Source: a virus (lineage: Duplodnaviria; Caudoviricetes). Taken from it: a stretch of DNA of 64,000 nucleotides. A program made the translations under genes and the position numbers. The stretch covers positions 5,151 through 69,150 of IMG/VR virus record IMGVR_UViG_3300031760_000045; one strand, 5' to 3'. The notes below the pieces were generated by a model. It was not told the origin of the DNA, searched no databases, and saw only the letters and a program-made list of their open reading frames with translations. Shown here in pieces: positions 2,693 to 63,228 of this stretch. The stretch's first letter is position 1. Every line of letters starts with the position of its first letter.

Positions 2693-5600
2693 GTGATAAG
2701 GTTGAACACTAATGTGCGGAATTTGCAGCTAGACGTTTGTGATTATAGCGGCAACGTTCTTTGTAATTTATACGATAATCTTTCTGATAAGAGCGGACGT
2801 GCAACAAACGTATTTGTCACATCTGAAAGAAACGGCTGGAAAGAACTTTCGTTTACAATTCCTTCTATGATAAACACAGACGAAGGTATAGAAGAAAACT
2901 ACAGGTTAAAGTATCTAATTGCTGATTATCGTATTCGGTTGAGGGATGACTATGAAACAGACTGGTATCTTATCTCTGAACCTAAAATCAGCCATGATAC
3001 TAAATCGAAAAATGTATCTGTTACAGCGAATCATGTATCTCAACTGCTTAAACAAAAGAAAATGGATCTTGAATTCTCTGACGAAGAAGGCAACAATGTC
3101 GGGACGGCAAGGCAGCTTCTTGAGACGATTCTTGAGGGAACAGGATGGGAATGCGGAAACGTTGCACAGTTTATGGAACGTGATCAGCCTAATGTTGAGA
3201 AAGTAAGATCGTTAAATGCTTCGGCAAAAAGCGGTGCTTTTAAAATGATTGCTTCCATGTGTGAGTTGTTCGACGCAAAACCTATTTATCACGGCGACGA
3301 AATGACCGTCGATATTTTGCCGATGAATCCATTTTCGGAAGAAATAAACGATGACGGCACACCAACGGAAGTCGTAGACAACAACATTCCGGTGCTTGAA
3401 CTTCATTACGACCGCAATACTCATAAGATAAGCAGGACCTTAAACACGGAAAACATCTGCACTAAACTGTATGCATACGGTTCATATGGTGATCGTGAAG
3501 GTCTTTGTTCTCTCCAGAAATGCGAACACGACGAATACACCATGACAATTTCCGGAAACGGAGAATACTATTTCTCAGACGGCGTTGCAACTTATTATTT
3601 CTATGCAACAAACGCAAGAAACAACGATACCGTTGTTTGGTCTATGCTTGATGCTGCATCTATGTCCTACGTGTGGAATAACCGCACAAATAAAGCATAT
3701 CGTGTGTATAAGCAGCCGAAATATGAAAACAGAACTCCGTTAACACCAGCTGTTTCTAGTGTTCGAAATTATTTCTCATTTATTATGGATTTCGGATATT
3801 ACGATTCTGTTGGCCTTTTGTCAGATGAACTGCTTCAGAAAATCGCTTTATATCAAAGAACCGCTCCTTCCCTATTAGCTTTAGCCGAAGAAAAATATGA
3901 AGAAGTCATTGAAACACAAAATAAGCTTAGTGTTATAGCAGAGCATAATACAGGGTTCCTAAAGCTCAATGTGAAGAGATATGAGTCTGATGGAAACTAT
4001 CTGAAATTAGTCTTGGACAGTTCTCAGCCTGTATTATATCGTTCTGATTATGATGAACCGCGTAGAAGGTTATTTACATGGTATGTAGCGGAAGAGCTTA
4101 AAGAAAACGGAGATCCCGTTTCCGGGCTCGGAAGCGTTGTATACGCAATTAACCCAACGGTTTCTCCTGCAAAATGGAGAAAAGGTTATGTTAAGAAAGT
4201 CAATAATCTTACCGAGGACTACGTGTATACCGCAAAAGAAAACGATGATCCTCAATCGCTTGTTGTATGGCTGAGTGCTGACGAAGTTAATGTGTCGAAT
4301 TTTCCTGTAAACAAAACACATTTTTATCTGTATTGTACAAATTCAATCAGTGGAAAACTTGGTGTCAAGGAAAGCGAAGCCGAAGCTCTTGCACGGACAC
4401 TTCAGCAAACGACAAAACAAGTAACAGAAATTCATCCTACTTACTTTGGATGGGATAATGATCCGTTACCCGACTACCGTCTTGTTCAGAATAGTTACGG
4501 GTGGTTCTACAGATCATTCAGAGATTCCACATCTCTCGGGAATCTATATTTTTGTTACGGTCTCGCGGGCGACACAATCTGGAGAAGAGTATATGTTTCT
4601 GAAACACTGCCGGATGTTGTGTCCGGCGATTATTGTTTCAACCTGAAATCGAAACTTCTCTACCACGGAGAAACGCAAAGTGGAACGCTTAAATGGGTTG
4701 AAATTGGAGACAGTGGAATACAAATACCAAGCCATAATAAGTATTACGCTCCCGATGCTGAAGCACAGCGTCTTACAAACAACTTCAGCAAAGTCGTATT
4801 TTATTGCTTAAAACGCGACATGCTTTATAAAGGCTTGTATGACCGGTATGAGCATACGGCAGCAAAAGATATTATTCCAGGCAATTATGCTTTTGAAGAT
4901 GAATATGGGTTTACATGGGTTTTCACTACAGACAAAATCATAACGCAAGGGAAAAAGATTATATTGGACACTTCGTCAAATAATGTTTTTCAGGGACAAA
5001 TTGACGGAGATATTGTAAAAGCCGAAATCAAACCGTTTGATACAATTGATTATCCTTCGGCGAACGATCTGCCCAACGTAACTTTCAACCAAGGTGCTAT
5101 TGATCGCACAACTCACGTTGAATATAACACAGACAGCTTTGTACGTTCAAACAATATAACTCTGAACTATTCGACGGATTACGATTATAATCTTCCTTCC
5201 GGAACTTATATCATGCTCTATGACTCCAACAGAAGATTCCTCGATTCTTATTCTTTAAATTCATCCGGAACCTTTACTACTTCCGAAAGAGTCAGATATG
5301 CAAGAATTGTTTGTCCAAGTCAGCCTACATCTTCAAATTATTTAAGAGTTCATGATTATACGAATAGACTGTTTATTTCAAGAAAACAGTATCAGATCAT
5401 TGGCAAAACAAGCAACAATACGTTGGTTGCTCAAGGAAACAGGACTGGCATAAACGAGCTCATTGCAAATCTTATTGTATTCAGCGACAGACTTTTCCTT
5501 GAAAAGCTCCCGGCATATGATGCAGTAGGAAAACAGATTAACGATCAGAACAACCAATTTGCAAGCGACCTTGGCGATATGTACAGAGAAGGTTGGTGGC

Positions 5601-43356: not shown

Positions 43357-43409
43357 TTTCTCCTTTACGGTAACTTTCGAAAGTCTTCAAAGTTCGGTAC
43401 CGAATTAAT
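43357..43409 (-). promoter_or_regulatory. 53-bp regulatory motif, copy 1 (palindrome TTCGGTACCGAA)
   Basis: 46/53 identical to 60138-60190 by manual alignment. Confidence 0.7.
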
Positions 43410-53465: not shown

Positions 53466-55310
53466 TTAGATCGGTTGAGTCTGAGTTCCATCGTCAATAG
53501 CAAACTCTTCAAGCGCCGCTGCCGCATTCTCCGGAACTTCAATTCCCGTATGATCCCAACCATAAACAGTCTTATCTCCGGTGCTCATCTGGAACAAACG
53601 ACGGTTGGTGGGATCATAGCAGGTGTTGATGAAACCCGTAACGCCAAAATCACGATTCTTGGTAACGCGGATACCCTTGGGAGATTTCTCCACATTGAGA
53701 ACCACGTCCGCAAGATTTGTGATTGCACTGCTTCCGCTGACGTCATCAGAAGTAAACGTTGCTCCAGCAGCAGTCTTCCGAGGATGAGCAATACAGATCA
53801 CATGCGCCTTATACTTATTGGCAAAGGCTTTCAACTGAGCGGTGAACTTGGCCTGAGCCTTGTTCTCCTCGTCTGCAGAAACCAAAGCACTCATTAAGTT
53901 GTCGCATACGAAAGTCTTTGTTCCATAGCGACGAGCGCAGGCTTCAAACACCTTCAGAATGGAGTCAGTCTGCTTTTCATCTGTGATAACAGAGTTGTCA
54001 TACAGGAAGAACTTCCCGTCCAGCCACTGTTTGATCCGCTTCTGAATTTCTGCGCTGACACAGCAGATGTTCTTTCCGGATCTTGCGTCGGTTTTGTACT
54101 CAATGTACTTTCGCTCAGTAGCCTGAAGCATAATCCACTCAAGAAACTTATAAGAAGACAGTTCTCCACTATAAACACAGACGGATTCTCCCTGAGAGAT
54201 GGCATTCAAACAAATTGGACCACTTAATGTGGACTTGCCCTCGCCTCTTTTACCGGAAATTATACAAAGACTACCTTCGCTGAAACCACCGATCATGTTA
54301 TCCAGCGCCGGAATTTTCGTAAGCAGCCTCGGAACAGTCGTGGGATCAACGAAGGGAATCTTGGACAGTTCCAGAACGCCCTTAATCGGAGCGGGTTCGC
54401 AGGAAGCTACCAGATTCTTCAGATAATCTGGACCATAAGCCATAAGGATTTCATTGGCATCCTTACAGATACGGTTGAAATCCTTTCCGTTCCATGTGAA
54501 TTCAGGATATTCGCCGGGAATCATGCAACGATCTTCGCCAAGTCTCTTGGACAGAGTGGACACCATTTCCAGACCAGGTTCATCAGAATCTCCGAAGAGA
54601 ATGATCTGATTAAACTTTTCAAGATATTCCCAGCAAAGGTTTACCCACTCCATATTGTTGCAACCGCAAGGAACGGAAACCACATTGGATACACCGGCTT
54701 CATACAGAGCCAGAGCGTCAATTTCGCCTTCAGTAATTACCAGAGGACGGTTGAAATCAGTCATATCCATACCGAAAAGAATTGGTTCCGTGTTGGATTC
54801 CTGCCATTCTTTCGGCCCATCTTTCTTCTCATGACGCTTCGGCTTCCGATGCTTCACGTAAACCAATTCGCCGTCCCGATAGAACGGGAATAAAATGTTT
54901 CCATCTTTATCAGCACCAATCTTCCAATCCAGAAGAGTCTCTTCAGAGATCCGCCGGGTAGCGAAATAGGTTACGATTTCTTCTGTCATGGGATAAAGCA
55001 TATCCGGATCGGGCTTTGTATAAATTTTCTTCTGTTGTTTCGTCACCTTAGGAAGAGAATAGCCGGTGGGAGCTTGTTCTCCGAAGAACTCACAAAGCTG
55101 TCTGAAATTACCCGTTTCCCCACAGCTTCCACGCTTACAGTTATACGCACCATTGTTCAGACCAATGGCAAATGTTTCTCTGTCTGTATCATGACCGCCA
55201 CAGAAAGGGCAGAATTCAGCGATTACCTGACCGTTCTTTACACGAAATTGACCAAGATGTTTTTCCGCCAGTTCGATGACGGCACTAGCCATAGAGTCCA
55301 TATTTTTCAC
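53466..55310 (-). CDS. Primase-helicase (T7 gp4/Twinkle-like)
   Basis: N-terminal Zn-binding CPFC..CKRGSC, TOPRIM EGEIDAL and FGDSD, helicase Walker A GKRGEGKST, HPRK. Confidence 0.88.
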   Translation of the reverse strand: MKNMDSMASAVIELAEKHLGQFRVKNGQVIAEFCPFCGGHDTDRETFAIGLNNGAYNCKRGSCGETGNFRQLCEFFGEQAPTGYSLPKVTKQQKKIYTKPDPDMLYPMTEEIVTYFATRRISEETLLDWKIGADKDGNILFPFYRDGELVYVKHRKPKRHEKKDGPKEWQESNTEPILFGMDMTDFNRPLVITEGEIDALALYEAGVSNVVSVPCGCNNMEWVNLCWEYLEKFNQIILFGDSDEPGLEMVSTLSKRLGEDRCMIPGEYPEFTWNGKDFNRICKDANEILMAYGPDYLKNLVASCEPAPIKGVLELSKIPFVDPTTVPRLLTKIPALDNMIGGFSEGSLCIISGKRGEGKSTLSGPICLNAISQGESVCVYSGELSSYKFLEWIMLQATERKYIEYKTDARSGKNICCVSAEIQKRIKQWLDGKFFLYDNSVITDEKQTDSILKVFEACARRYGTKTFVCDNLMSALVSADEENKAQAKFTAQLKAFANKYKAHVICIAHPRKTAAGATFTSDDVSGSSAITNLADVVLNVEKSPKGIRVTKNRDFGVTGFINTCYDPTNRRLFQMSTGDKTVYGWDHTGIEVPENAAAALEEFAIDDGTQTQPI

Positions 55311-55354: not shown

Positions 55355-55538
55355 TGAAGCAAACTAAATACGTAGTATTAAGTAGAAGCGAGCTGTACCT
55401 TGTCTGGTACAGCTCGCTTCAGTGAGGTGCTGCAGGCACGGTCCTGTATAGGACCTGCCAGCAGCACCTCACCAGAAGTTTATCTTTGCGAACTTATTAA
55501 TTACATCAATAAGGCAGTTTCTGCTTTTCTTTGCTTCA
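55355..55538 (-). ncRNA. Retron-like msr-msd cassette C (orphan)
   Basis: 9-bp terminal inverted repeat, G at 55529, two small stem-loops, two long hairpins. Confidence 0.75.
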
Positions 55539-55539
55539 A

Positions 55540-55914
55540 TTAGAATGGAGGCGGATTATCGTCTTCACTTTCTTCAGACTTCTTTTCCGCAGGCTTCGCG
55601 GGCGTCAGCGGAATAACCTCAGTAGCTCTTACACTCAGAGAGAACTTTTCATTCCCATTCTTGTCCTTATAAGGCTGAATGATCTGGTCTCCGTAAACCT
55701 GAACCATAGTTCCTTTCTTAATACGAGGGTAGATAAACTCGCCACTCTTTCCCCAGACGGAAACGTTGTACAGGTCACTGATGTAGTTGTCTCCCTCTTT
55801 CTTCGTGGTGTTTACGGACACAGTGAATGAAACGACGGTCGTTCCTTGCCAGTTCTTCTGTGTCGGGTCTTTAATAAGTCTTCCTGTTAAACCTACTTTT
55901 GCGCAATTGGACAT
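55540..55914 (-). CDS. ssb: Single-stranded DNA-binding protein
   Basis: GRL..DP, SFTVSVN, VSVWGK, KG..V.V.G OB-fold pattern; acidic tail ending PPF. Confidence 0.9.
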   Translation of the reverse strand: MSNCAKVGLTGRLIKDPTQKNWQGTTVVSFTVSVNTTKKEGDNYISDLYNVSVWGKSGEFIYPRIKKGTMVQVYGDQIIQPYKDKNGNEKFSLSVRATEVIPLTPAKPAEKKSEESEDDNPPPF

Positions 55915-56095
55915 ATTTTTCCCACCTTTTCTTTATTGCCTCTTTTTTCTTTATATTTCAGAATGGCTTTGCTTTCTTTTATCATCAAATTTCTTTTAAA
56001 AGAGCCACAAGAAAGCCCCCGGAAGAGGCTCCGGGGGCGCTTTAACACCGACTTTCAGTCAATGCTGATGTCACTGCTTCAGCCGGTGGTTTTGC

Positions 56096-56818
56096 TTAAG
56101 CAGCTTTCTTTGCAAGAGACAGAAGCTCTTCCAGAAGAGCATTCAGCTTATTCATGTCTTTGCAAGTCATGTAGTTCGCCCCACCAATGTGTTTCACAAC
56201 CACGTTCTGGGTGAACTCTTCCTTCTGTTCCTTGGTATATTCCTTTGTTACGAGAGAAATGCCGTTCTGGATTCTCTTGGTGATGGCCTGATAGTCTTCA
56301 GGCGTTGGAGCGAAAGCGGTCTCTTCCGGAATGGAGTACTTCGTCCTGTCCTTGGAATAATAGATATCATGAGAGAATCCAAGACTCTTACAGGCAATGG
56401 ACAGAGCATCCGTATACGCCATTTTCATGGCTTCATCGTTACAGTACGCTCCGCTCCTTTCGTTGGCGACAAACTTATTACCGCCAACGCCGGAGATCGG
56501 ATGAGACTGTTCCTTGGAAACAGGATCGACAACCACAAGTTCCAGCGTACAGAAGACTGCAATCTCTCCGGTGGAACACGGCTCAAATGAATATTTCTCA
56601 TTCTGCGTCCACCAGCCGAAACCGCAAGGTCCGAAGACTTCCGTCAGCCTCTTGATGCGCCACATCGGATTGATATCCGTGTAGCCTTTCAGTCTTCCGG
56701 CTCCGATCTCTTTGCGAGCGCTATCCGGTGTTGTCATGAACTGACTGTAGAATCTGGTGTTTCCTGACTGGGCTTCGGGCGTTTCTTCAGTCGTTTTCTT
56801 TGCAGGCAAACAAATCAT
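56096..56818 (-). CDS. Rad52/Sak-like single-strand annealing protein
   Basis: DINPMWRIKRLTEVFGPCGFGW, KMAYTDALS.ACK.LG...DIY. Confidence 0.75.
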   Translation of the reverse strand: MICLPAKKTTEETPEAQSGNTRFYSQFMTTPDSARKEIGAGRLKGYTDINPMWRIKRLTEVFGPCGFGWWTQNEKYSFEPCSTGEIAVFCTLELVVVDPVSKEQSHPISGVGGNKFVANERSGAYCNDEAMKMAYTDALSIACKSLGFSHDIYYSKDRTKYSIPEETAFAPTPEDYQAITKRIQNGISLVTKEYTKEQKEEFTQNVVVKHIGGANYMTCKDMNKLNALLEELLSLAKKAA

Positions 56819-57345
56819 TCCTTTCTTTTCATCATATCTGTGTTAATCGGAACTACATCAAGACATTCCTTGGACAAAACTTCTTTTAAAGTTAATTTCT
56901 TTTGCTTTTCTTTTATCAATTTCTTGTATCCTCTGTCATGTCTTGACTGTTCAAGCATTTTTAAGTCCGGTATACGCTTTATGTAGTACACCGGACCCAG
57001 CGGGTCGCCATATTGGTTACATTCAAACCAACACAGTGCTCCGCTTGGGTAATAATGTTTTCCCTTAAATGTGTCCTGTGTTCGATAGAGGGACAGATAA
57101 TCTATCATATCTTCATGTCCAACCATGGAAGTCACAAGCACTTTGGGAAGATTGAAGTGTGAAGTACCGTCGAATTGCTTTACAACTCGCCAGCCGGAGC
57201 GTTTTTCAGAAGTCGTTATCGCAGAGCAGAGAACATAAGAAGGCCAGAAACTGCTATTATTTATGTCTCGGTCGAGTACAATGGCAAGCGAGTAATACGA
57301 CGTGACACAATCTCCTTTTGCAGTTCTCTCTTCTCTCTCTGCCAT
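56815..57345 (-). CDS. Hypothetical protein
   Basis: Overlaps the RNAP end and the annealase start; no recognised motif. Confidence 0.5.
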   Translation of the reverse strand: MAEREERTAKGDCVTSYYSLAIVLDRDINNSSFWPSYVLCSAITTSEKRSGWRVVKQFDGTSHFNLPKVLVTSMVGHEDMIDYLSLYRTQDTFKGKHYYPSGALCWFECNQYGDPLGPVYYIKRIPDLKMLEQSRHDRGYKKLIKEKQKKLTLKEVLSKECLDVVPINTDMMKRKE

Positions 57346-60095
57346 GAGCGTTTATGAATCTTTCTGTAAGTCTCCTGACACACTTCACACCGACACTGAG
57401 CCGCATTCTTTCTTTCGCACATGAGTCCGCAATCGATGCATTCATAGAACCCGTTCGTGTTCTTGATGCACTGATGATTCTTCACCCAGGACGGAATTTT
57501 GATTCCGCATTCCTCACAAGTATCACAGCTTGCAAGGTTTGTCCGCAGATTATTCAGTGCAATGGTACCAAACACCCGCCAGAACATTTGCTTATGTACG
57601 GATTTATTCATTCCCTCTCCGGCGAAGAGGTATTTCACGATGTATGGATACGCATACTCAAGAGATCCATATTCGGAAATTATTCTGGAAGCGATATCTT
57701 CCGCTACAAAAGTACTGCCGCTGATAAGCTGTCTTTCCGAATCATATGAGTTCTCCTGCGAACTGATCATCGAAGAAATATCGGCCTTATCCAGATTACA
57801 GAACAGCAGCGGAATCTCCGGATGAGAGGTTGTGCAAGGCTCGCTTAACAGCATCTGCCAATTAAACTGAGGAACCCCGGCGTAATTCAGATTGATATGA
57901 CGGATATCCTCAAATGCCTTGCAAACCCTATTCATCGTAGAATTATTCGGATCAGCATATTTATTCTTATTGTTCTGTTCCGACCGCTGATTCTTTGAGA
58001 ACTGGAACCAATACGGCATACGGCCATTCTTTCCACCAGTAGCTTTGCCAATCTTCTTTGCTACGTTAGGGTAGTTGGTATACTCATGCACAACGCCAGT
58101 CTTTGCGCCATCTATACGCAAGTTATTCAAGTAGGTTAATAGAGCTGCGGAGACTCTGTCAGGCTTTTCTTTATTCCACAGCCGAGTCAACATGTTCGAT
58201 ATCTCACCGATGTTTGAATACTCATGGGCTCTCAGCAGCCCTTTATACAGGGATTCACTGGATATAGGCTCTGCTTTTGCCTTTTCGGCATCATAGAACA
58301 ACGGAACAATGTCGAATTCCTTAACGTTTCTTTCCGCAACCGATACGAACAATGGATCTACCACCACGTTCAACTGATCTCCATCGACATCAAACTGAAG
58401 TATTCTGGAAACCATGCTTTGAACACTAGTATGAATGGCATTCGTATAGAACCAATCGTAGATATTCTGATCGTGTGTGATCCGCTGGATCGAATGCTCC
58501 AGATACAGATGCGGAGATCGCAGGACGTCAGCTTTCTCATGGCGTCTGAAGATTTTGCAGGCTACTTCATCTTTTGCCAGTAAGCCTTTTGGATTTTCTT
58601 CGCCGAGGAACCAGTGCTGACATGCTGCATAGAAATCCGGCAGGACAAACAGCCGTTTGTTCTTGCATCTAATCCGTCCGGACTTTGCGTCTAAGAGCAT
58701 TCGTTTTCGAATGGCTTTCAGACTCTCCCGACTATACGCTTCCCTTAAAAGTTCAGGGTATATTGCCAGCGCAGCTTTATATGGAATCTCTGAATCCGGA
58801 TCAGCATTCAGCGTTCGTAACATGGCATCCATATTCCGAGTCAGATTCGTAATCCGATCATGATCATGCTGTGTAAACTGTCGGATCTCTTCGTCTGTCA
58901 TTAATTGACATGTTTGAATCATTTGATAGGACAAGGTTGTATCTTTGATATAATCTTCTTCATAGTTGGTACGGCAGAACTTACAGTTGTTTTCCTTAAA
59001 GAACTGCTTATACTCTTCCCACGAAGTATACAGCTTATACAGCTTAAACATCGATGTCGTCAGAATGACGTTGATATGTTCCTTCTCCAGATCATGAACC
59101 TTACCCCAGGCATCGGTGATGATTGGCTTAGCGTTATTCATCTTACAGAACCGTATGAAATCAAAACTGCCGAGAAGTCCTTTGATCCAGTCTGCACGAA
59201 CCATAAAGTTCGATTTTGATACTTCCGGTAGCATCATGCCACAGCCGTCCGTATGATCAATCATAACCGTTCTGACACCGATCTCATAAGTATAGTCCGG
59301 CTTGATATACATCATCCGATCTGTGACAGGAGCTTCAAAGTCCTTAATAACGATGCATCTATCAATATCAAAGTCCGTCCATTCCTCCGTTGCAGAAGAG
59401 CAGAGACTTAAATATGCCAGATATTTATTCTGATTCAGACTGCCACGCTCGTTAATCGTCTTCCAGTCCATACCGCATTCAAGCCTCTTATGGACTTTAT
59501 CCCATGCGTTATCCGACATGCACTGGATTTTATCCCGCCGTAGTTGTCCCGCACTGGCAGTGAAGAATCGATAATGTCTGTTTTCAACGCCGTTGCTTGT
59601 AAGAATCGGAATGTAAAATCCATTCATTACTATCTGTCGTAGCATTTCTACATTTTTCCATTTGATCACAACCAGATCCAAGGTGGTATCAAACGGCTTC
59701 AGTTCCAACGCTCTCGACAGTTCACAACAGAACTCCGCAATCTTTTTTGAAGTTTTCAGCTGTTGATACGTAACGCCTTCAGGGAAAGGATAATCAGCGT
59801 CTTTCGGATAATAGAGAACTGAATCAAGCCGCACAGTTCTCGGAATACCACTGTGCGCTTTAATCAGCGTCTCAAGCTGATCCTTCAGAAGTTTCTTCTC
59901 CGAAAGAATTTTTGCACGTTCTTCCTTGGGCGCTTCCTCTTCTTCCATAACATCGAGCTTGTTCTTCAGTTCAATAATGCGGGAATACAGGGCCTGCTCT
60001 TCATGGGTAAATAAATCATAGCCGGACAGGGACACCAGACGAATTTGATCCTTTAGGTAAGTTTTGTCTCCCAACTTGGTCACTCCCCCTTTCAC
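57261..60095 (-). CDS. YonO-like single-subunit (double-psi barrel) RNA polymerase
   Basis: FFTASAGQ.R..K, TDGCG, RSPH and catalytic FDVDGD (DxDGD) motifs; about 940 aa. Confidence 0.85.
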   Translation of the reverse strand: MKGGVTKLGDKTYLKDQIRLVSLSGYDLFTHEEQALYSRIIELKNKLDVMEEEEAPKEERAKILSEKKLLKDQLETLIKAHSGIPRTVRLDSVLYYPKDADYPFPEGVTYQQLKTSKKIAEFCCELSRALELKPFDTTLDLVVIKWKNVEMLRQIVMNGFYIPILTSNGVENRHYRFFTASAGQLRRDKIQCMSDNAWDKVHKRLECGMDWKTINERGSLNQNKYLAYLSLCSSATEEWTDFDIDRCIVIKDFEAPVTDRMMYIKPDYTYEIGVRTVMIDHTDGCGMMLPEVSKSNFMVRADWIKGLLGSFDFIRFCKMNNAKPIITDAWGKVHDLEKEHINVILTTSMFKLYKLYTSWEEYKQFFKENNCKFCRTNYEEDYIKDTTLSYQMIQTCQLMTDEEIRQFTQHDHDRITNLTRNMDAMLRTLNADPDSEIPYKAALAIYPELLREAYSRESLKAIRKRMLLDAKSGRIRCKNKRLFVLPDFYAACQHWFLGEENPKGLLAKDEVACKIFRRHEKADVLRSPHLYLEHSIQRITHDQNIYDWFYTNAIHTSVQSMVSRILQFDVDGDQLNVVVDPLFVSVAERNVKEFDIVPLFYDAEKAKAEPISSESLYKGLLRAHEYSNIGEISNMLTRLWNKEKPDRVSAALLTYLNNLRIDGAKTGVVHEYTNYPNVAKKIGKATGGKNGRMPYWFQFSKNQRSEQNNKNKYADPNNSTMNRVCKAFEDIRHINLNYAGVPQFNWQMLLSEPCTTSHPEIPLLFCNLDKADISSMISSQENSYDSERQLISGSTFVAEDIASRIISEYGSLEYAYPYIVKYLFAGEGMNKSVHKQMFWRVFGTIALNNLRTNLASCDTCEECGIKIPSWVKNHQCIKNTNGFYECIDCGLMCERKNAAQCRCEVCQETYRKIHKRSWQREKRELQKEIVSRRITRLPLYSTET

Positions 60096-60137
60096 TGATA
60101 TGATCCTTTTTTTTCTTTTTCAGAAATCGATAATGAC

Positions 60138-60190
60138 TTTCTCCTTTACGGCGTTTTTCGGATGTCTTCAAAGTTCGGTACCGAACTAAT
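60138..60190 (-). promoter_or_regulatory. 53-bp regulatory motif, copy 2, upstream of the RNAP gene
   Basis: Contains the perfect 16-bp palindrome AGTTCGGTACCGAACT (60172-60187). Confidence 0.7.
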
Positions 60191-60196
60191 TTGCGT

Positions 60197-60232
60197 AAAA
60201 AAATGCTGCGCGGCATATACAACCGCGCAGCA
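60197..60232 (-). terminator. Intrinsic terminator ending the RT/tRNA transcript
   Basis: 10-bp stem TGCTGCGCGG/CCGCGCAGCA followed by U7 on the minus strand. Confidence 0.85.
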
Positions 60233-60493
60233 AGGCCACTAGTCCCACCTCGTGGCCGATGCTCCTCAAAGTTGCCTGCCCCGAATTCTTGTAATGAAAA
60301 GCGACATGCATTACTAGGGTTCAACCCGATTGAGCATACGGACAGTCTCTCTGTTAACCGGTCGCTTCTTGACGAAAGGAGGTGATGAGCTATGTACCGG
60401 CTACATCACATTTAACGTCGGACTGAACGAAACCATGTAAACCGACGGGCTCTAGCCAGTTTTGTTAACAAGTTTCTGTCTATCGATAGGCTG

Positions 60494-60564
60494 TCGGAGC
60501 TGAGAGAATCGAACTCCCACTAGCTGGATATAAGCCAGGTGCGCTACCGTTACACCAAGCTCCG
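60494..60564 (-). tRNA. tRNA-Ile (anticodon UAU)
   Basis: CGGAGCT TG GTGT AACGGTA GCGC A CCTGG CT TAT AT CCAGC TAGT GGGAG TTCGATT CTCTC AGCTCCG A: complete 71-nt cloverleaf, A73, no encoded CCA. Confidence 0.88.
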
Positions 60565-60918
60565 GCAAAAATGTCACAGCGCGAGAACTTAAGTTTTTTG
60601 CAAAAGGGCCTCGAATAAAAAAATTATTTTTCGGTTGGATTAAGAGAGACGCTGTGACGCAGGTGCACGCTTTATAACCGATGAACAATTATAAAAAACT
60701 CTTTTTATGAATTTAATGCCGCTTCAAGTGGCCAGCTTGAAATGAATGCTTAGGCGCAACGGCGCGATGGACTGTATTGGCTCTCACAGGAGCCCTTAAT
60801 ACAGTCCAATATGGATCGGTGCACTACTCCGATCCAGTTAAAGAGAAACAAATAGGAGAGCGTTCCAACCTTTCAAAAGTTTCTCTTTAAGGCAATTTAA
60901 TTGGGTCAAATATAATTT

Positions 60919-61088
60919 AGCGAAGAAACTTAGTTACGAAGTAACTATTACTGACTGAGGCCGCCTCGACGACGTCGAACGGCTTGTCGGTTCGACGTCG
61001 TCGACGGCTGCATCAGTCAGATAGATATACCTTTACGGTTCTTCTAATCACATCAAAAGAGTTAGTTAAAACTTTTCTTTCTTACGCT
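60919..61088 (-). ncRNA. Retron-like msr-msd cassette B (overlaps the RT stop codon)
   Basis: Inverted repeat AGCG(U)AAGAAA/UUUCUUCGCU, G at 61077, conserved stem-loops, 70-nt hairpin. Confidence 0.78.
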
Positions 61089-62230
61089 ATTTTACCATTC
61101 AGATAATCTTTCAGCATGGATTTTACGTTTACCTGCCACTTCTTGTTCTGCTGAGCGATTAAATTCTCAAAGTAGTCTTTCTCCACCATCGTGTAGTAAG
61201 ACAGAAGTCCACGCAGGTGATACACGTCATCCATATCCCAATACTTCTTATTCTTTGTATCGAGAATAAAGGAACACAGAGCTCCCCTGAAATTCTTCTT
61301 GTTTCTATACCCTACCGTAATATCATAGTTTCCGTTACACATCAGACCAAGGTTCCAGTTGTTTCCCTTAACGGAACCAAACCTAGTCTTTTCATCCTTC
61401 AGAGTGTAAGGAGCATCGAATTCTTTCAGCACATCTCTGATCAATGCAACCACGTTCATCCACGGAAACTTTTCCTGAGCGGAAACTATAATGTCATCCG
61501 CGTAACGGGTGTAAATCATGTGGCGAGAACTGAGCTCATTGAAGATTCTGAAATCAACGGGAATCATGATCCAGTTGGTCAGAAAAGGCGACAGCGGAGA
61601 CCCTTGCGGCATTTCCCCGTTGGCCTTGTAATTGAGCGAAATTGCCTTCCGAAGCTCTTTGAATCCAGTTGGATCTTTGCAAACTTCGCTCGTAGGAAAT
61701 ACCATGCTGAGCATCTTCATTACAAAGTCCAGATTCGTATGCGGAAAGAAGCCACTGAAGTCCGTCTTCAGATACCAATTGGACTTATTTCCTACGTGTT
61801 TCTTGTTATTATCCACGATACTTCTGCCCTCGATATACGCAAAGGCGGAAGTATGATACAACAGACCGCAGTTATCACGAAGAAAACTGGTGAGCCGATA
61901 CAGTTCAGACTTCAGAGGTTCCAGCGGTTCATCAATGGGACGGAATCCACCAGTAGATTTGGGGATCTTAAAAGAGTTGAATAACTCATTTCTATCCATT
62001 TCAAACAGTCTTTTGTTATCCTCATTGAACTTCTTCAGCCATGAAATCATTCCGGCAACATCGACTTTGGACAATATGTTCTTATCGATATGTTCAAACC
62101 GCCGGGTAATCGTTGCAGTCGAGTTTGAATTCTCAAGCGTGTAATCGCTTAAGACGATATTATCAGCAATCACATCTTCCCACGTTAACTGCCGTGGTTT
62201 TCTGTGCTGCCTTACTGTTACATAAATCAT
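61082..62230 (-). CDS. Retron-type reverse transcriptase
   Basis: IPK..GG.R.I..P, SAFAY..GRS, NNKKH (retron region X, NAxxH-like), DFSGFF, PQGSPLSP, YTRYADD, NLG (region Y, VTG-like); no maturase or nuclease domain. Confidence 0.9.
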   Translation of the reverse strand: MIYVTVRQHRKPRQLTWEDVIADNIVLSDYTLENSNSTATITRRFEHIDKNILSKVDVAGMISWLKKFNEDNKRLFEMDRNELFNSFKIPKSTGGFRPIDEPLEPLKSELYRLTSFLRDNCGLLYHTSAFAYIEGRSIVDNNKKHVGNKSNWYLKTDFSGFFPHTNLDFVMKMLSMVFPTSEVCKDPTGFKELRKAISLNYKANGEMPQGSPLSPFLTNWIMIPVDFRIFNELSSRHMIYTRYADDIIVSAQEKFPWMNVVALIRDVLKEFDAPYTLKDEKTRFGSVKGNNWNLGLMCNGNYDITVGYRNKKNFRGALCSFILDTKNKKYWDMDDVYHLRGLLSYYTMVEKDYFENLIAQQNKKWQVNVKSMLKDYLNGKIA

Positions 62231-62247
62231 TCATCTGATCCTTTCAT

Positions 62248-62558
62248 TTCTGTTGCTTCATAAACTAAAAGAGATGGGGCGATGTCGCTTCCAGGTTTGA
62301 GGCAGCGCCTTCCGCCGGTCTTTACAGGTTCCACGCGCTGATGTTCCACTTCTGACAGTTTGTCAACTCAGTATTTGTCTACTTTCGGGAGACTTTTATT
62401 CCTCTCCCGGTCAGATCATCATTGTTTCGACGGTGTTCTTAAAAGTTCAGGAGCTCTGGATCTCCAGCCCGCGTGAATCCATCTCCGAGCAAAATGATTC
62501 TATTAATTACATCAATAGCTCAACCAAAGGTTGTTCTTCTTTATTAATTACAACAGAA
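62248..62558 (-). ncRNA. Retron-like msr-msd cassette A (upstream of RT, overlaps the ThiF stop codon)
   Basis: Split inverted repeat (8+5 bp), G at 62539, conserved stem-loops, branched template region. Confidence 0.78.
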
Positions 62559-63228
62559 GGGTATCAAAATCGAACGGTTTCAAGATCATTGCCCGTTCAA
62601 GTTTATTTGTTTTGACAAAGTTGATGAAGTTCACAACTCCGCCCATCGCCACAGACCACACCGTCGGAATCACGCAAAGAGAAACTTTGCAGGCACTGAC
62701 AGGCACGTTCTTTTCAGCTTCGGCGTGAGAGAAGTCCATCTGATCCAGAAGGAATTCAATATCTTCATCCTTTTCCCAATCGGCGGCATAATGCTGTGCA
62801 TCCGTCAGAGCAGTACGGAAGTCAAACATCGCCTTAATGTTCATGTTATACCGATTTTCTTCCACGATCTTCCGGCGCAGGTCAATATTATCCACGCAGA
62901 GGAACACATAACCGGAAAGCTTCTGACCGTTCCATCCTTCCGGATACAGACGAATAGTCTTTGCAGCGTCCGGATTGATCTTACACCAACGGTCATACAC
63001 ACCTTCGATCTTGGGCTTATAAAGATTCTCGGTTGTGAACATCTGATTCGCAAGATTATGTTCTTCCACGATATCAAAATCATAGAGACTCACATTCGTC
63101 AGACCAAATCTCGCAAGAAGTTCCGCGACTGATGACCCGACAGAGCCACAGCCGATGATATGAATCCGATCTTCACACAAAGACGGATCAAAGAATTCAC
63201 TGCTTTTCGCCAGATTCACCAATCCCAC
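62548..63228 (-). CDS. ThiF/E1-like adenylating enzyme
   Basis: IHIIGCGSVGS nucleotide-binding loop, YDFDIVE.HNL.NQ, K.E, VFLCVDN..R, DFR. Confidence 0.88.
   Translation of the reverse strand: MGLVNLAKSSEFFDPSLCEDRIHIIGCGSVGSSVAELLARFGLTNVSLYDFDIVEEHNLANQMFTTENLYKPKIEGVYDRWCKINPDAAKTIRLYPEGWNGQKLSGYVFLCVDNIDLRRKIVEENRYNMNIKAMFDFRTALTDAQHYAADWEKDEDIEFLLDQMDFSHAEAEKNVPVSACKVSLCVIPTVWSVAMGGVVNFINFVKTNKLERAMILKPFDFDTLLL

Follow-up and report, generated by a model that had tools for sequence, protein, structure and literature searches.

The window analyzed here is a stretch of 64,000 nucleotides (positions 5,151 to 69,150 of IMG/VR record IMGVR_UViG_3300031760_000045), and its source is an uncultured phage, about 110 kb in size, whose host is probably among gut or rumen Clostridia. 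The 69,150-bp contig is incomplete, covering 69 of about 112 kb, and the phage GenBank collection holds no cultured relative. On the minus strand lies the gene for a retron-type reverse transcriptase (RT) of 382 amino acids (61082..62230; RVT_1, 5.5e-17), whose neighbors are a ThiF/E1-like protein and a YonO-like RNA polymerase. The latter is of the YonO/QDE-1 kind (PF05183) and is the sole RNA polymerase detected in the contig; two giant open reading frames gave profile matches to tail-type or unknown families. A scan of five neighboring proteins revealed no PADLOC effector beside the RT.

Among the PADLOC models, the RT matches RT_II-A (2.5e-46) and 63 further retron RTs. Its best matches in the Protein Data Bank are likewise retron RTs (7e-20 to 1e-11), with group II intron RTs at 5e-05. 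The nearest solved relatives, namely Ec83 (7e-20), Ec78, the St85 family, Ec67 and Ec86, are all msDNA-making retron RTs. The score against the NCBIfam retron St85 family (163.6 bits) falls under the cut-off of 235; thus, the protein is a divergent member of the retron family. The divergence extends to the motifs. Where retron RTs carry NAXXH (PMC12475279), the phage enzyme has DNNKKH, aligned to DNAKIH of Ec83, and the consensus of its family at this site is DCxKKH, in which the H alone is invariant. Further, the VTG of Ec83 is aligned to NLG in the window RT, with L294 and G295 invariant in the family.

Around this gene are three non-coding cassettes on the minus strand, A, B and C, which resemble retron msr-msd RNA in build and have the a1/a2 and priming-G features described for retrons (PMC6868368). 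The preliminary description had taken them to be retron-like, and this identification is borne out by the covarying a1/a2, the invariant G after a1, and the best matches of the RT, which are all to retron RTs. In the plan common to the cassettes, a1 is followed at once by the G, then by hp2 (a conserved hairpin with a UGUNAU apex that is presumably the handle recognized by the RT), a variable template, and a UAG right before a2, which closes the structure by pairing with a1. The a1/a2 helices of 32 curated cassettes are 5-14 bp long and unrelated in sequence, and comprise 249 Watson-Crick, 8 G-U and 2 A-C pairs. The G directly follows a1 in 32/32 of these cassettes, and it does not vary in alignment A2. 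One RT goes with three or four cassettes: one position is upstream of the RT gene, another is downstream, and a further one, after ssb, is about 5.6 kb off.

Cassette A (62243..62558) lies directly upstream of the RT gene. It has a two-part a1, the G at 62539, hp2 at 62499-62519, UAG at 62265-62267 and a2 from 62264 downward; model R1 matches at 62495-62547, and the template of about 230 nt is A-rich, U-poor and devoid of the mini-hairpin discussed below. Cassette B (60917..61089) overlaps the RT stop codon and consists of a1 (61078-61089, with one bulge), the G (61077), hp2 (61039-61061), a long hairpin (60952-61020), an AG (60929-60930) and a2 (60917-60928). Its predicted fold has an energy of -73.3 kcal/mol (z -8.3) and an anchored helix, and model R1 matches at 61036-61085. 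Cassette C (55355..55538) sits between ssb and the primase-helicase gene, beginning 1 nt past the ssb stop and ending 45 nt short of the primase-helicase start. Its parts are a1 (55530-55538), the priming-type G (55529), hp2 (55491-55515), two long hairpins (55422-55472 and 55385-55420), UAG (55364-55366) and a2 (55355-55363); the fold (-97.4 kcal/mol, z -12) has an anchored a1/a2 helix, and model R1 matches at 55489-55537.

Several other identities for these elements were rejected. A diversity-generating retroelement (DGR) is not supported by a blastn-short search, which found no variable-repeat copy of any cassette elsewhere in the contig, and a DRT2-like de novo gene is disfavored by A-type templates that lack a consistently stop-free frame. 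Rfam returned only tRNA, both at the gathering cut-off and with E values up to 1. Neither sigma-70 promoters nor intrinsic terminators were found within the cassettes on the minus strand, and the long hairpins have no T tails. The notion that hp2 is a promoter box is at odds with the covariation of its stem (6/9 pairs) and with its 23 G-U versus 2 A-C pairs.

On the plus strand, the sense of the predicted cDNA, all three cassettes start with CT(A/T)A next to the repeat, as had been stated: CTAA at 55364-55367 in C, CTTA at 60929-60932 in B and CTAA at 62265-62268 in A. In C and B this start leads into a mini-hairpin, and both mini-hairpins read as earlier reported. Mini-hairpin C (55367..55379, plus strand; AATAC-GTA-GTATT) has a 5-bp stem with arms at 55367-55371 and 55375-55379 and a GTA loop at 55372-55374; it lies 3 nt from a2. 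Mini-hairpin B (60931..60947, plus strand; TAGTTAC-GAA-GTAACTA) has a 7-bp stem with arms at 60931-60937 and 60941-60947 and a GAA loop at 60938-60940; it lies 2 nt from a2. Both loops are closed by C-G; the second pair of either stem is A-T, and both stems are rich in A/T. In the RNA sense the minus strand gives UAC (C) and UUC (B), again as claimed. These are not UNCG tetraloops in RNA, given that just three bases stand between the closing C and G. There is no hairpin beside the CTAA of cassette A, in agreement with the earlier remark that it lacks a clear GNA loop.

A count of perfect hairpins in the contig (stem of 5 bp or more, loop of 3 nt) gives 99. Just two of these, on either strand, belong to the cGNAg type, namely mini-hairpins B and C; first-order Markov shuffles of the contig predict 1.6 +/- 1.0, so the count is not enriched. 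It is the placement of these hairpins, not their number, that is striking: both are 2-3 nt from a2, on the same strand. The contig has no more than three triloop hairpins with a 7-bp stem, and mini-hairpin B is among them. The positions in B and C, which the preliminary description called identical, are nearly so, with the loop center 11 nt from a2 in B and 10 nt in C. The same account considered the two templates otherwise unrelated; in fact the whole 5' module is common to both cassettes, which are probably paralogues.

Conservation was assessed in a close-relative set of 16-19 phage contigs whose RTs are at least 50% identical; the cassette counts rest on those contigs, and at least 120 further RT homologues at 54-97% identity stand outside them. 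Three close loci came from scans of metagenomes and genomes, whose other finds all belonged to a distant clade, and a second alignment query led back to the same contigs. A 15-mer scan of viral contigs for further relatives gave chance matches only, and a single-protein locus search for them gave no loci. We distinguish the B/C class (cassettes after the RT or after ssb) from A-type cassettes (upstream of the RT). In the B/C class the mini-hairpin is usual at the same spot, in a fixed register 1-3 nt from a2; 5/20 cassettes have no clear hairpin. It is absent from all A-type cassettes and from about 250 distant-clade cassettes. Since these cassettes do without it, the mini-hairpin is dispensable for priming.

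Where present, the mini-hairpin is a real, conserved module. In 12 triloop cassettes, 98.3% of the cells are paired, and 5/5 core pairs have changed on both sides; the only one-sided change that breaks a pair is a single A-C. The covariation score is 0.655 versus 0.175 for shuffled alignments, a value reached in 0/500 shuffles and approached by none of the slid registers. The compensatory stem changes that had been proposed as a check are thus seen in the relatives. The loops of 15 hairpins, read in the cDNA sense, are GAA (six), GTA (three), GTGA (two), ATA (two), AAA (one) and CTTT (one). Thus, 11/15 are GNA or GNNA, three are ANA and one is CTTT. The last base is A in 14/15 and the first is G in 11/15, while the middle is free, and both GTGA tetraloops retain the G..A ends. 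Free variation of the loops, the outcome that was to count against the idea, was not observed. Among the homologous triloops, 9/12 are GNA, and the closing pair is 5'-C...G-3' in 10/12 and T-A in the other two. A strand test of the close-clade B/C triloop hairpins found GNA 10 times in the cDNA sense and 0 times in the RNA sense; in the distant clade (about 250 cassettes) there is no excess, with 19 in either sense. The mini-hairpins are not independent samples, given an identical 16-mer in three loci and the probable paralogy of B and C.

Wobble pairs offer a view of which nucleic acid is folded. The hp2 stems, in which G-U makes up 12% of pairs, contain 23 G-U versus 2 A-C, and the a1/a2 helices 8 versus 2; because G-U far exceeds A-C, both elements fold as RNA. 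In the template hairpins, wobble amounts to about 2% whichever sense is read (16 and 13 of about 750 pairs). This scarcity and the loop bias are the only indirect signs that a branched, RNA-linked msDNA may be made. The mini-hairpin stems contain three non-Watson-Crick pairs; each is G-T when read as cDNA and none is G-U, a 3 versus 0 split that is not significant. Without a loop bonus, the 5-bp stem of cassette C is worth 0.0 kcal/mol as RNA and -0.5 kcal/mol as DNA. Such 5-bp stems are marginal, and a stabilizing loop therefore matters. The DNA parameters of ViennaRNA score all 64 triloops alike, so that GNA is not rankable by energy. The literature does agree with the special stability claimed for these loops: among triloops, only GNA forms a stable, nuclease-resistant DNA mini-hairpin, GNNA is the other loop class that does so, and the loop stabilization derived from melting temperatures concerns GNA and GNNA loops in DNA (PMC13037366).

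We tentatively favor, with somewhat less than even confidence, a DNA-level role of the mini-hairpin as the best single explanation. The data show how the cassettes are built, that they are conserved and covary, that the loops are biased and that wobble is distributed asymmetrically; that reverse transcription occurs at all, where it starts, and that the mini-hairpin acts as DNA are inferred. If the phage RT works as retron RTs do, it would use the 2'-OH of the G after a1 as its primer and would begin copying the template at UAG. The mini-hairpin of cassettes B and C would then make up the first 13-17 nt to be copied, and the cDNA would open with 2-4 nt of leader, next to which would come a hairpin whose cap is a C-G-closed GNA loop. 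A sheared G-A in the loop of the DNA copy could stabilize an otherwise marginal A/T-rich stem. The mini-hairpin could help the nascent DNA to fold away from the template; it could also form a compact 5' cap that is poorly handled by nucleases and by SSB, the protein that binds single-stranded DNA, or that is readable by a protein. The covarying stem, the loop bias, the strand test, the wobble asymmetry, the marginal stems and the kinship of the RT to retron RTs all speak for a role as DNA. Points against it are that an RNA-reading protein would explain the U-N-C loops equally well, that 4/15 loops are not G..A, that 5/20 B/C cassettes have no clear hairpin, that the stems have one G-C pair, and that the strict retron motifs are missing from the RT.

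A role in RNA is the other explanation that we regard as distinctly possible, although doubtful. In it, the mini-hairpin would place the UAG in the RT active site, stack on a1/a2, or guide processing of the cassette from an operon transcript, with U-N-Y being read by the RT or a nuclease. Because G-N-A in DNA is U-N-Y in RNA, sequence alone cannot separate selection on the one from selection on the other. Of the earlier claim that selection acts on a single-stranded DNA product, the conserved hairpin and the biased loops stand, but U-N-Y on the RNA fits them equally. The fixed register beside a2 and the nearly invariant UAG adjoining the hairpin suit an RNA role, as do the U at the first RNA loop base in 14/15 hairpins, the folding of the remainder of the 5' module as RNA, and the presence of both window mini-hairpins in the minimum-free-energy folds of their cassette RNAs. 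However, A-type and distant-clade cassettes lack the hairpin yet share the G, the UAG and a1/a2; the stems have no G-U, versus the 12% of hp2; and the 5-bp versions are predicted to be unfolded as isolated RNA. UNC triloops are not known to be especially stable as RNA, and no published loop stabilization is known for them.

That the mini-hairpin is a relic of one ancestral B/C-type cassette, with little present function and a coincidental GNA loop, is decidedly unlikely. The shared 16-mers, the recurrence of the same stem in B and C cassettes, the loss or replacement of the hairpin in 5/20 cassettes, and the 250 distant-clade cassettes with no cDNA-sense GNA excess are all consistent with descent from one ancestor. 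But compensatory double changes at all five pairs, with one A-C as the sole one-sided break, are unlike a neutral relic, and the two terminal loop bases are kept, with variation in the central base and in the length of the loop.

It is very improbable that the mini-hairpin acts in the phage genomic DNA, extruded on the plus strand as an N4-type promoter or as a single-stranded initiation signal for the primase encoded just downstream of cassette C. Its position follows a2, a variable sequence that covaries with a1 at a distance of 150-200 nt, which points to the hairpin being part of the folded cassette. The location of cassette C between ssb and the primase-helicase gene would suit such a signal, and just two cGNAg hairpins in the contig are compatible with a small signal set. 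The 5-7 bp stem and 3-nt loop of an N4-type promoter are present on the template strand, the plus strand templating the leftward genes. Nevertheless, no T7-like virion RNA polymerase was found in the 69 of about 112 kb covered, and cassette A, upstream of the RT, has no hairpin. Further, N4 promoters require a purine at the loop center, and that of loop C is a pyrimidine. A review says no more on this than that the central G is contacted by the polymerase (PMC13037366).

If the mini-hairpin does act in the predicted cDNA, this would be a further natural use of the cGNAg mini-hairpin and would suggest a design feature for stabilizing retron-made editing donors. In any case, a motif that is special in DNA and ordinary in RNA, placed at the predicted start of copying, is a cheap handle on the RNA-versus-DNA question for phage cassettes. 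Retron-like RTs of viral genomes have so far been counted in surveys only (PMC13681634), and we found no paper on their template RNAs or products. A broader proposal, unlikely as a whole, is that in a widespread family of gut and rumen phages one retron-like RT makes several distinct structured single-stranded DNAs during infection, and that the G(N)NA-capped mini-hairpin at the start of the B/C products is a 5' cap resistant to nuclease and SSB or a recognition signal for replication proteins of the phage itself, as with the mini-hairpins of the G4 origin or ssiA. Reverse-transcribed DNA would then be a working part of DNA phage replication or counter-defense.

Among known systems, the closest by RT are retrons of the Ec83/Ec78/St85 group (types I-A/II-A), which give the best profile and structure matches. 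Retrons likewise have a terminal inverted repeat, a G 3' of a1, small conserved 5' hairpins and a long hairpin template. They differ in the context of the G, which is UAGC in retrons and A-A-(A/U)-G in the phage cassettes, and in that one phage RT serves three or four cassettes. Retron msd stems are described as having, in general, mismatches or wobbles (PMC6868368), whereas the phage template stems are almost wobble-free. Further, the phage RT and its cassettes lie in a lytic-type phage replication module, not in a defense island as retrons do.

The GNA triloop with 5'-C...G-3' closure is shared with the d(GCGNAGC) and d(GCGNNAGC) mini-hairpins of Hirao and colleagues, and the GNNA loops of two phage homologues also occur in the known DNA mini-hairpin class. 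In the GCGNAGC 7-mer, two G-C pairs are indispensable, and GAGAAATC melts non-cooperatively (PMC13037366). The second pair of d(GCGNAGC) is G-C, whereas that of the 5-7 bp, A/T-rich phage stems is A-T; thus, the extraordinary stability of the 7-mer is not to be assumed for the phage hairpins. Natural sites of DNA mini-hairpins include phage single-stranded origins, ssiA and the N4 promoters: the phage G4 origin and ssiA carry GNA/GNNA mini-hairpins, and the promoters of the N4 virion RNA polymerase are single-stranded DNA with 5-bp stems and 3-nt GGA or GAA loops (PMC13037366). The msDNA of Retron-Eco4 (Ec83) is cleaved between its nucleotides 4 and 5, counted from the priming G, and RNA-free single-stranded DNA results (PMC6868368). 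In the predicted phage cDNA the mini-hairpin has its first base at nucleotide 3-5 and, purely by analogy, an Ec83-like cut would leave it as the 5' end of that molecule.

The two mini-hairpins lie on the + strand at 60931-60947 (loop GAA, cassette B, 60917-61089) and 55367-55379 (loop GTA, cassette C, 55355-55538), exactly where the preliminary description had put them. Direct reading of the sequence also bears out its observation that CT(A/T)A stands beside the repeat on this strand in all three cassettes, the third being A (62243-62558). The cassettes themselves, msr-msd-like non-coding RNAs around a retron-type RT, are encoded on the - strand. The contig contains 99 perfect triloop hairpins with stems of at least 5 bp, among which these two are the only cGNAg hairpins on either strand; shuffled contig sequence is expected to yield 1.6 +/- 1.0, and their number is therefore ordinary. 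Their placement is not. Both occupy the same strand, and each is separated by 2-3 nt from a2, the 3' arm of the closing helix.

The hairpin recurs in related phages. Our set of relatives comprised 16-19 contigs with an RT at least 50% identical to that of the window (the close clade), in which the cassette sites are unchanged: one or two precede the RT gene (A-type), one directly follows it (B-type), and one lies ~5.6 kb beyond the B-type, right after ssb (C-type). A hairpin of 5-7 bp is present 1-3 nt before a2 in 14 or 15 of 20 non-redundant B/C cassettes; one of the others has a larger hairpin at this spot, whereas the remainder form no more than 3-4 weak pairs. In the 12 triloop cassettes, 98.3% of cells are paired, a figure that is partly built in because these rows were picked for having the hairpin, but the compensatory changes are not: each of the five pairs has changes at both positions, covariation scores 0.655 versus 0.175 in shuffles (0.655 being reached in none of 500), and no slid register competes with the actual pairing. 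By this score, the mini-hairpin has been kept with compensatory stem changes in close-clade B/C cassettes, a check that the preliminary description had suggested. Its loops in the cDNA sense (n=15) are GAA (six), GTA (three), GTGA (two), ATA (two), AAA (one) and CTTT (one); the final base is A in 14 of the 15 and the initial base G in 11, while the middle is free. No such mini-hairpin was found in A-type cassettes or in ~250 cassettes of the distant clade (RT 38-46% identical).

Does the hairpin act as RNA or as DNA? Three tests discriminate between the strands: wobble pairs, the strand count of GNA loops, and stability. The conserved hairpin hp2 has 172 Watson-Crick, 23 G-U and 2 A-C pairs, and the a1/a2 helix has 249, 8 and 2, respectively; given this excess of G-U over A-C, both clearly fold in the RNA of the RT strand. 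In the long template hairpins, ~750 Watson-Crick pairs stand beside only 16 G-U in the RNA sense and 13 in the cDNA sense, a scarcity that would be expected if these stems must pair in both chemistries. Among a small sample of independent hairpins, G-U pairs in the RNA sense are absent from the mini-hairpin stems, which contain three A-C (G-T in the cDNA), and GNA triloop hairpins in close-clade B/C cassettes number 10 in the cDNA sense and 0 in the RNA sense, versus 19 and 19 in the distant clade as a control. Further, 5-bp versions without a loop bonus are computed to be marginal (0.0 kcal/mol as RNA, -0.5 as DNA), and the stabilizing loop effects on record, from Tm data, are those of GNA/GNNA loops in DNA (PMC13037366, PMC3201870).

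Wobble, strand count and stability thus favor a role at the DNA level, and with it the earlier proposal of selection on a single-stranded DNA product. They are not decisive, because the hairpins share ancestry, because U-N-C on the RNA mirrors the same constraint, because one-quarter of the loops break the rule, and because each stem contains a single G-C pair, two being required in the characterized GNA 7-mer. The mirrored U-N-C would suit an RNA-level element for positioning or processing, a reading that we consider somewhat less probable than a role in DNA. Common descent would likewise suit an inherited relic, which appears improbable beside stem pairs that have changed on both sides. That the hairpin serves the genomic DNA itself as an N4-type promoter or priming signal is very unlikely: it is coupled to a covarying a2, and no T7-like virion polymerase was found in the contig.

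For the favored DNA-level role, analogy to retrons suggests a route. The RT would bind hp2, prime on the G after a1 and copy from UAG; the mini-hairpin would be the first structure in the DNA copy. Its GNA cap could aid folding of the nascent strand off the template, and the hairpin could form an element near the 5' end on which nucleases and SSB act poorly, as they do on synthetic mini-hairpins (PMC13037366). The cut in Ec83 msDNA falls between nucleotides 4 and 5 counted from the priming G (PMC6868368); a similar one here would, speculatively, put the hairpin right at the 5' end of the DNA.

Cassettes C, B and A fold as - strand RNA at -97.4, -73.3 and -95 kcal/mol (z scores -12, -8.3 and -3.4) on a common plan: a1, G, small hairpin, hp2 with a UGUNAU apex, variable body, UAG, a2. 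When the 5' parts of 19 cassettes are aligned, AA.G and TGT.AT are invariant and hp2 has compensatory double changes at six of nine pairs; the derived covariance model has 41 matches in 1.69 Mb, all on the RT strand, with exactly three in the window. Among 32 curated cassettes, the a1/a2 sequences are wholly different and the helix borders constant (G on the 5' side, (U/C/A/G)AG on the 3' side). The three window cassettes match no Rfam family, and no promoter or terminator consensus was found within them.

The templates differ by type. Those of the A-type are rich in A and poor in U (A 26-41%, U 17-22%; window 62267-62495, - strand, and loci L121-L136 of related phages), unlike the balanced palindromes of the B/C templates. 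A DRT2-like hidden gene in the A-type templates is unlikely, since no stop-free frame is conserved. The distant clade has up to four tandem A-type cassettes of 230-340 nt each (L286 520-2837; L282 2176-4308; L138 9681-12559), in which G follows an a1 that ends in TGTAAT or TGCAAT, and a conserved YATGTAG-like end precedes a2. In most C-type cassettes (e.g., L121, L124 and L128), the last long hairpin includes the same 7-bp duplex of ACAGCTC and its complement, the orientation of which relative to the loop is flipped in window cassette C (55385-55420, -); a CCTGAAGG duplex is common to many B-type cassettes of relatives and absent from window B. Both duplexes may be protein-binding sites.

The window makes up 64 kb of a 69,150-bp virus contig with tail-type genes on the + strand and the replication module on the - strand; the RT protein is also on record in a 112-kb contig. 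The - strand carries genes for a DNA polymerase, a primase-helicase (53466-55310), ssb (55540-55914), an exonuclease, tRNA-Ile, and, one gene apart from the RT gene, a 944-aa protein (57261-60095) whose match to Pfam RdRP PF05183 (1.2e-11) suggests a single-subunit RNA polymerase of the YonO/QDE-1 type. A ThiF/E1-like gene (62548-63228, -) runs into cassette A, in whose 5' arm its stop codon falls. Two copies of a 53-nt repeat, at 60138-60190 and 43357-43409, are 87% identical and have a palindromic core that includes GGTACC; in related phages, this palindrome directly follows the B cassette and stands upstream of the gene for the RNA polymerase. Downstream of cassette B, a purine-rich/pyrimidine-rich structured element (60830-60880, -, within 60565-60918) has equivalents at the same relative place in L121, L128 and L136; it matches no Rfam family and is ruled out as a cassette because it lacks hp2.

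The RT (61082-62230, -; 382 aa) has retron RT models as its top profile matches (PADLOC RT_II-A, 2.5e-46), scores 163.6 bits against the NCBIfam retron St85 family, under the model cut-off, and has only retron RTs as its closest relatives among solved structures. Both retron signature motifs are degenerate (NAXXH to DNNKKH, VTG to NLG). Its family numbers 3,677 proteins at E <=1e-10 and spans more than 530 viral contigs; its hits in genome bins are mostly from Clostridia. Retron-like RTs in viruses have been counted in surveys (PMC13681634); in the literature we found no description of their cassettes, nor of retron products with GNA hairpins. The window RT is closest to the RT group that includes the Ec83 retron. 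The window cassettes follow the same plan as retron ncRNA (PMC6868368), but differ from retrons in the context of the G, in having several cassettes per RT, and in their phage setting.
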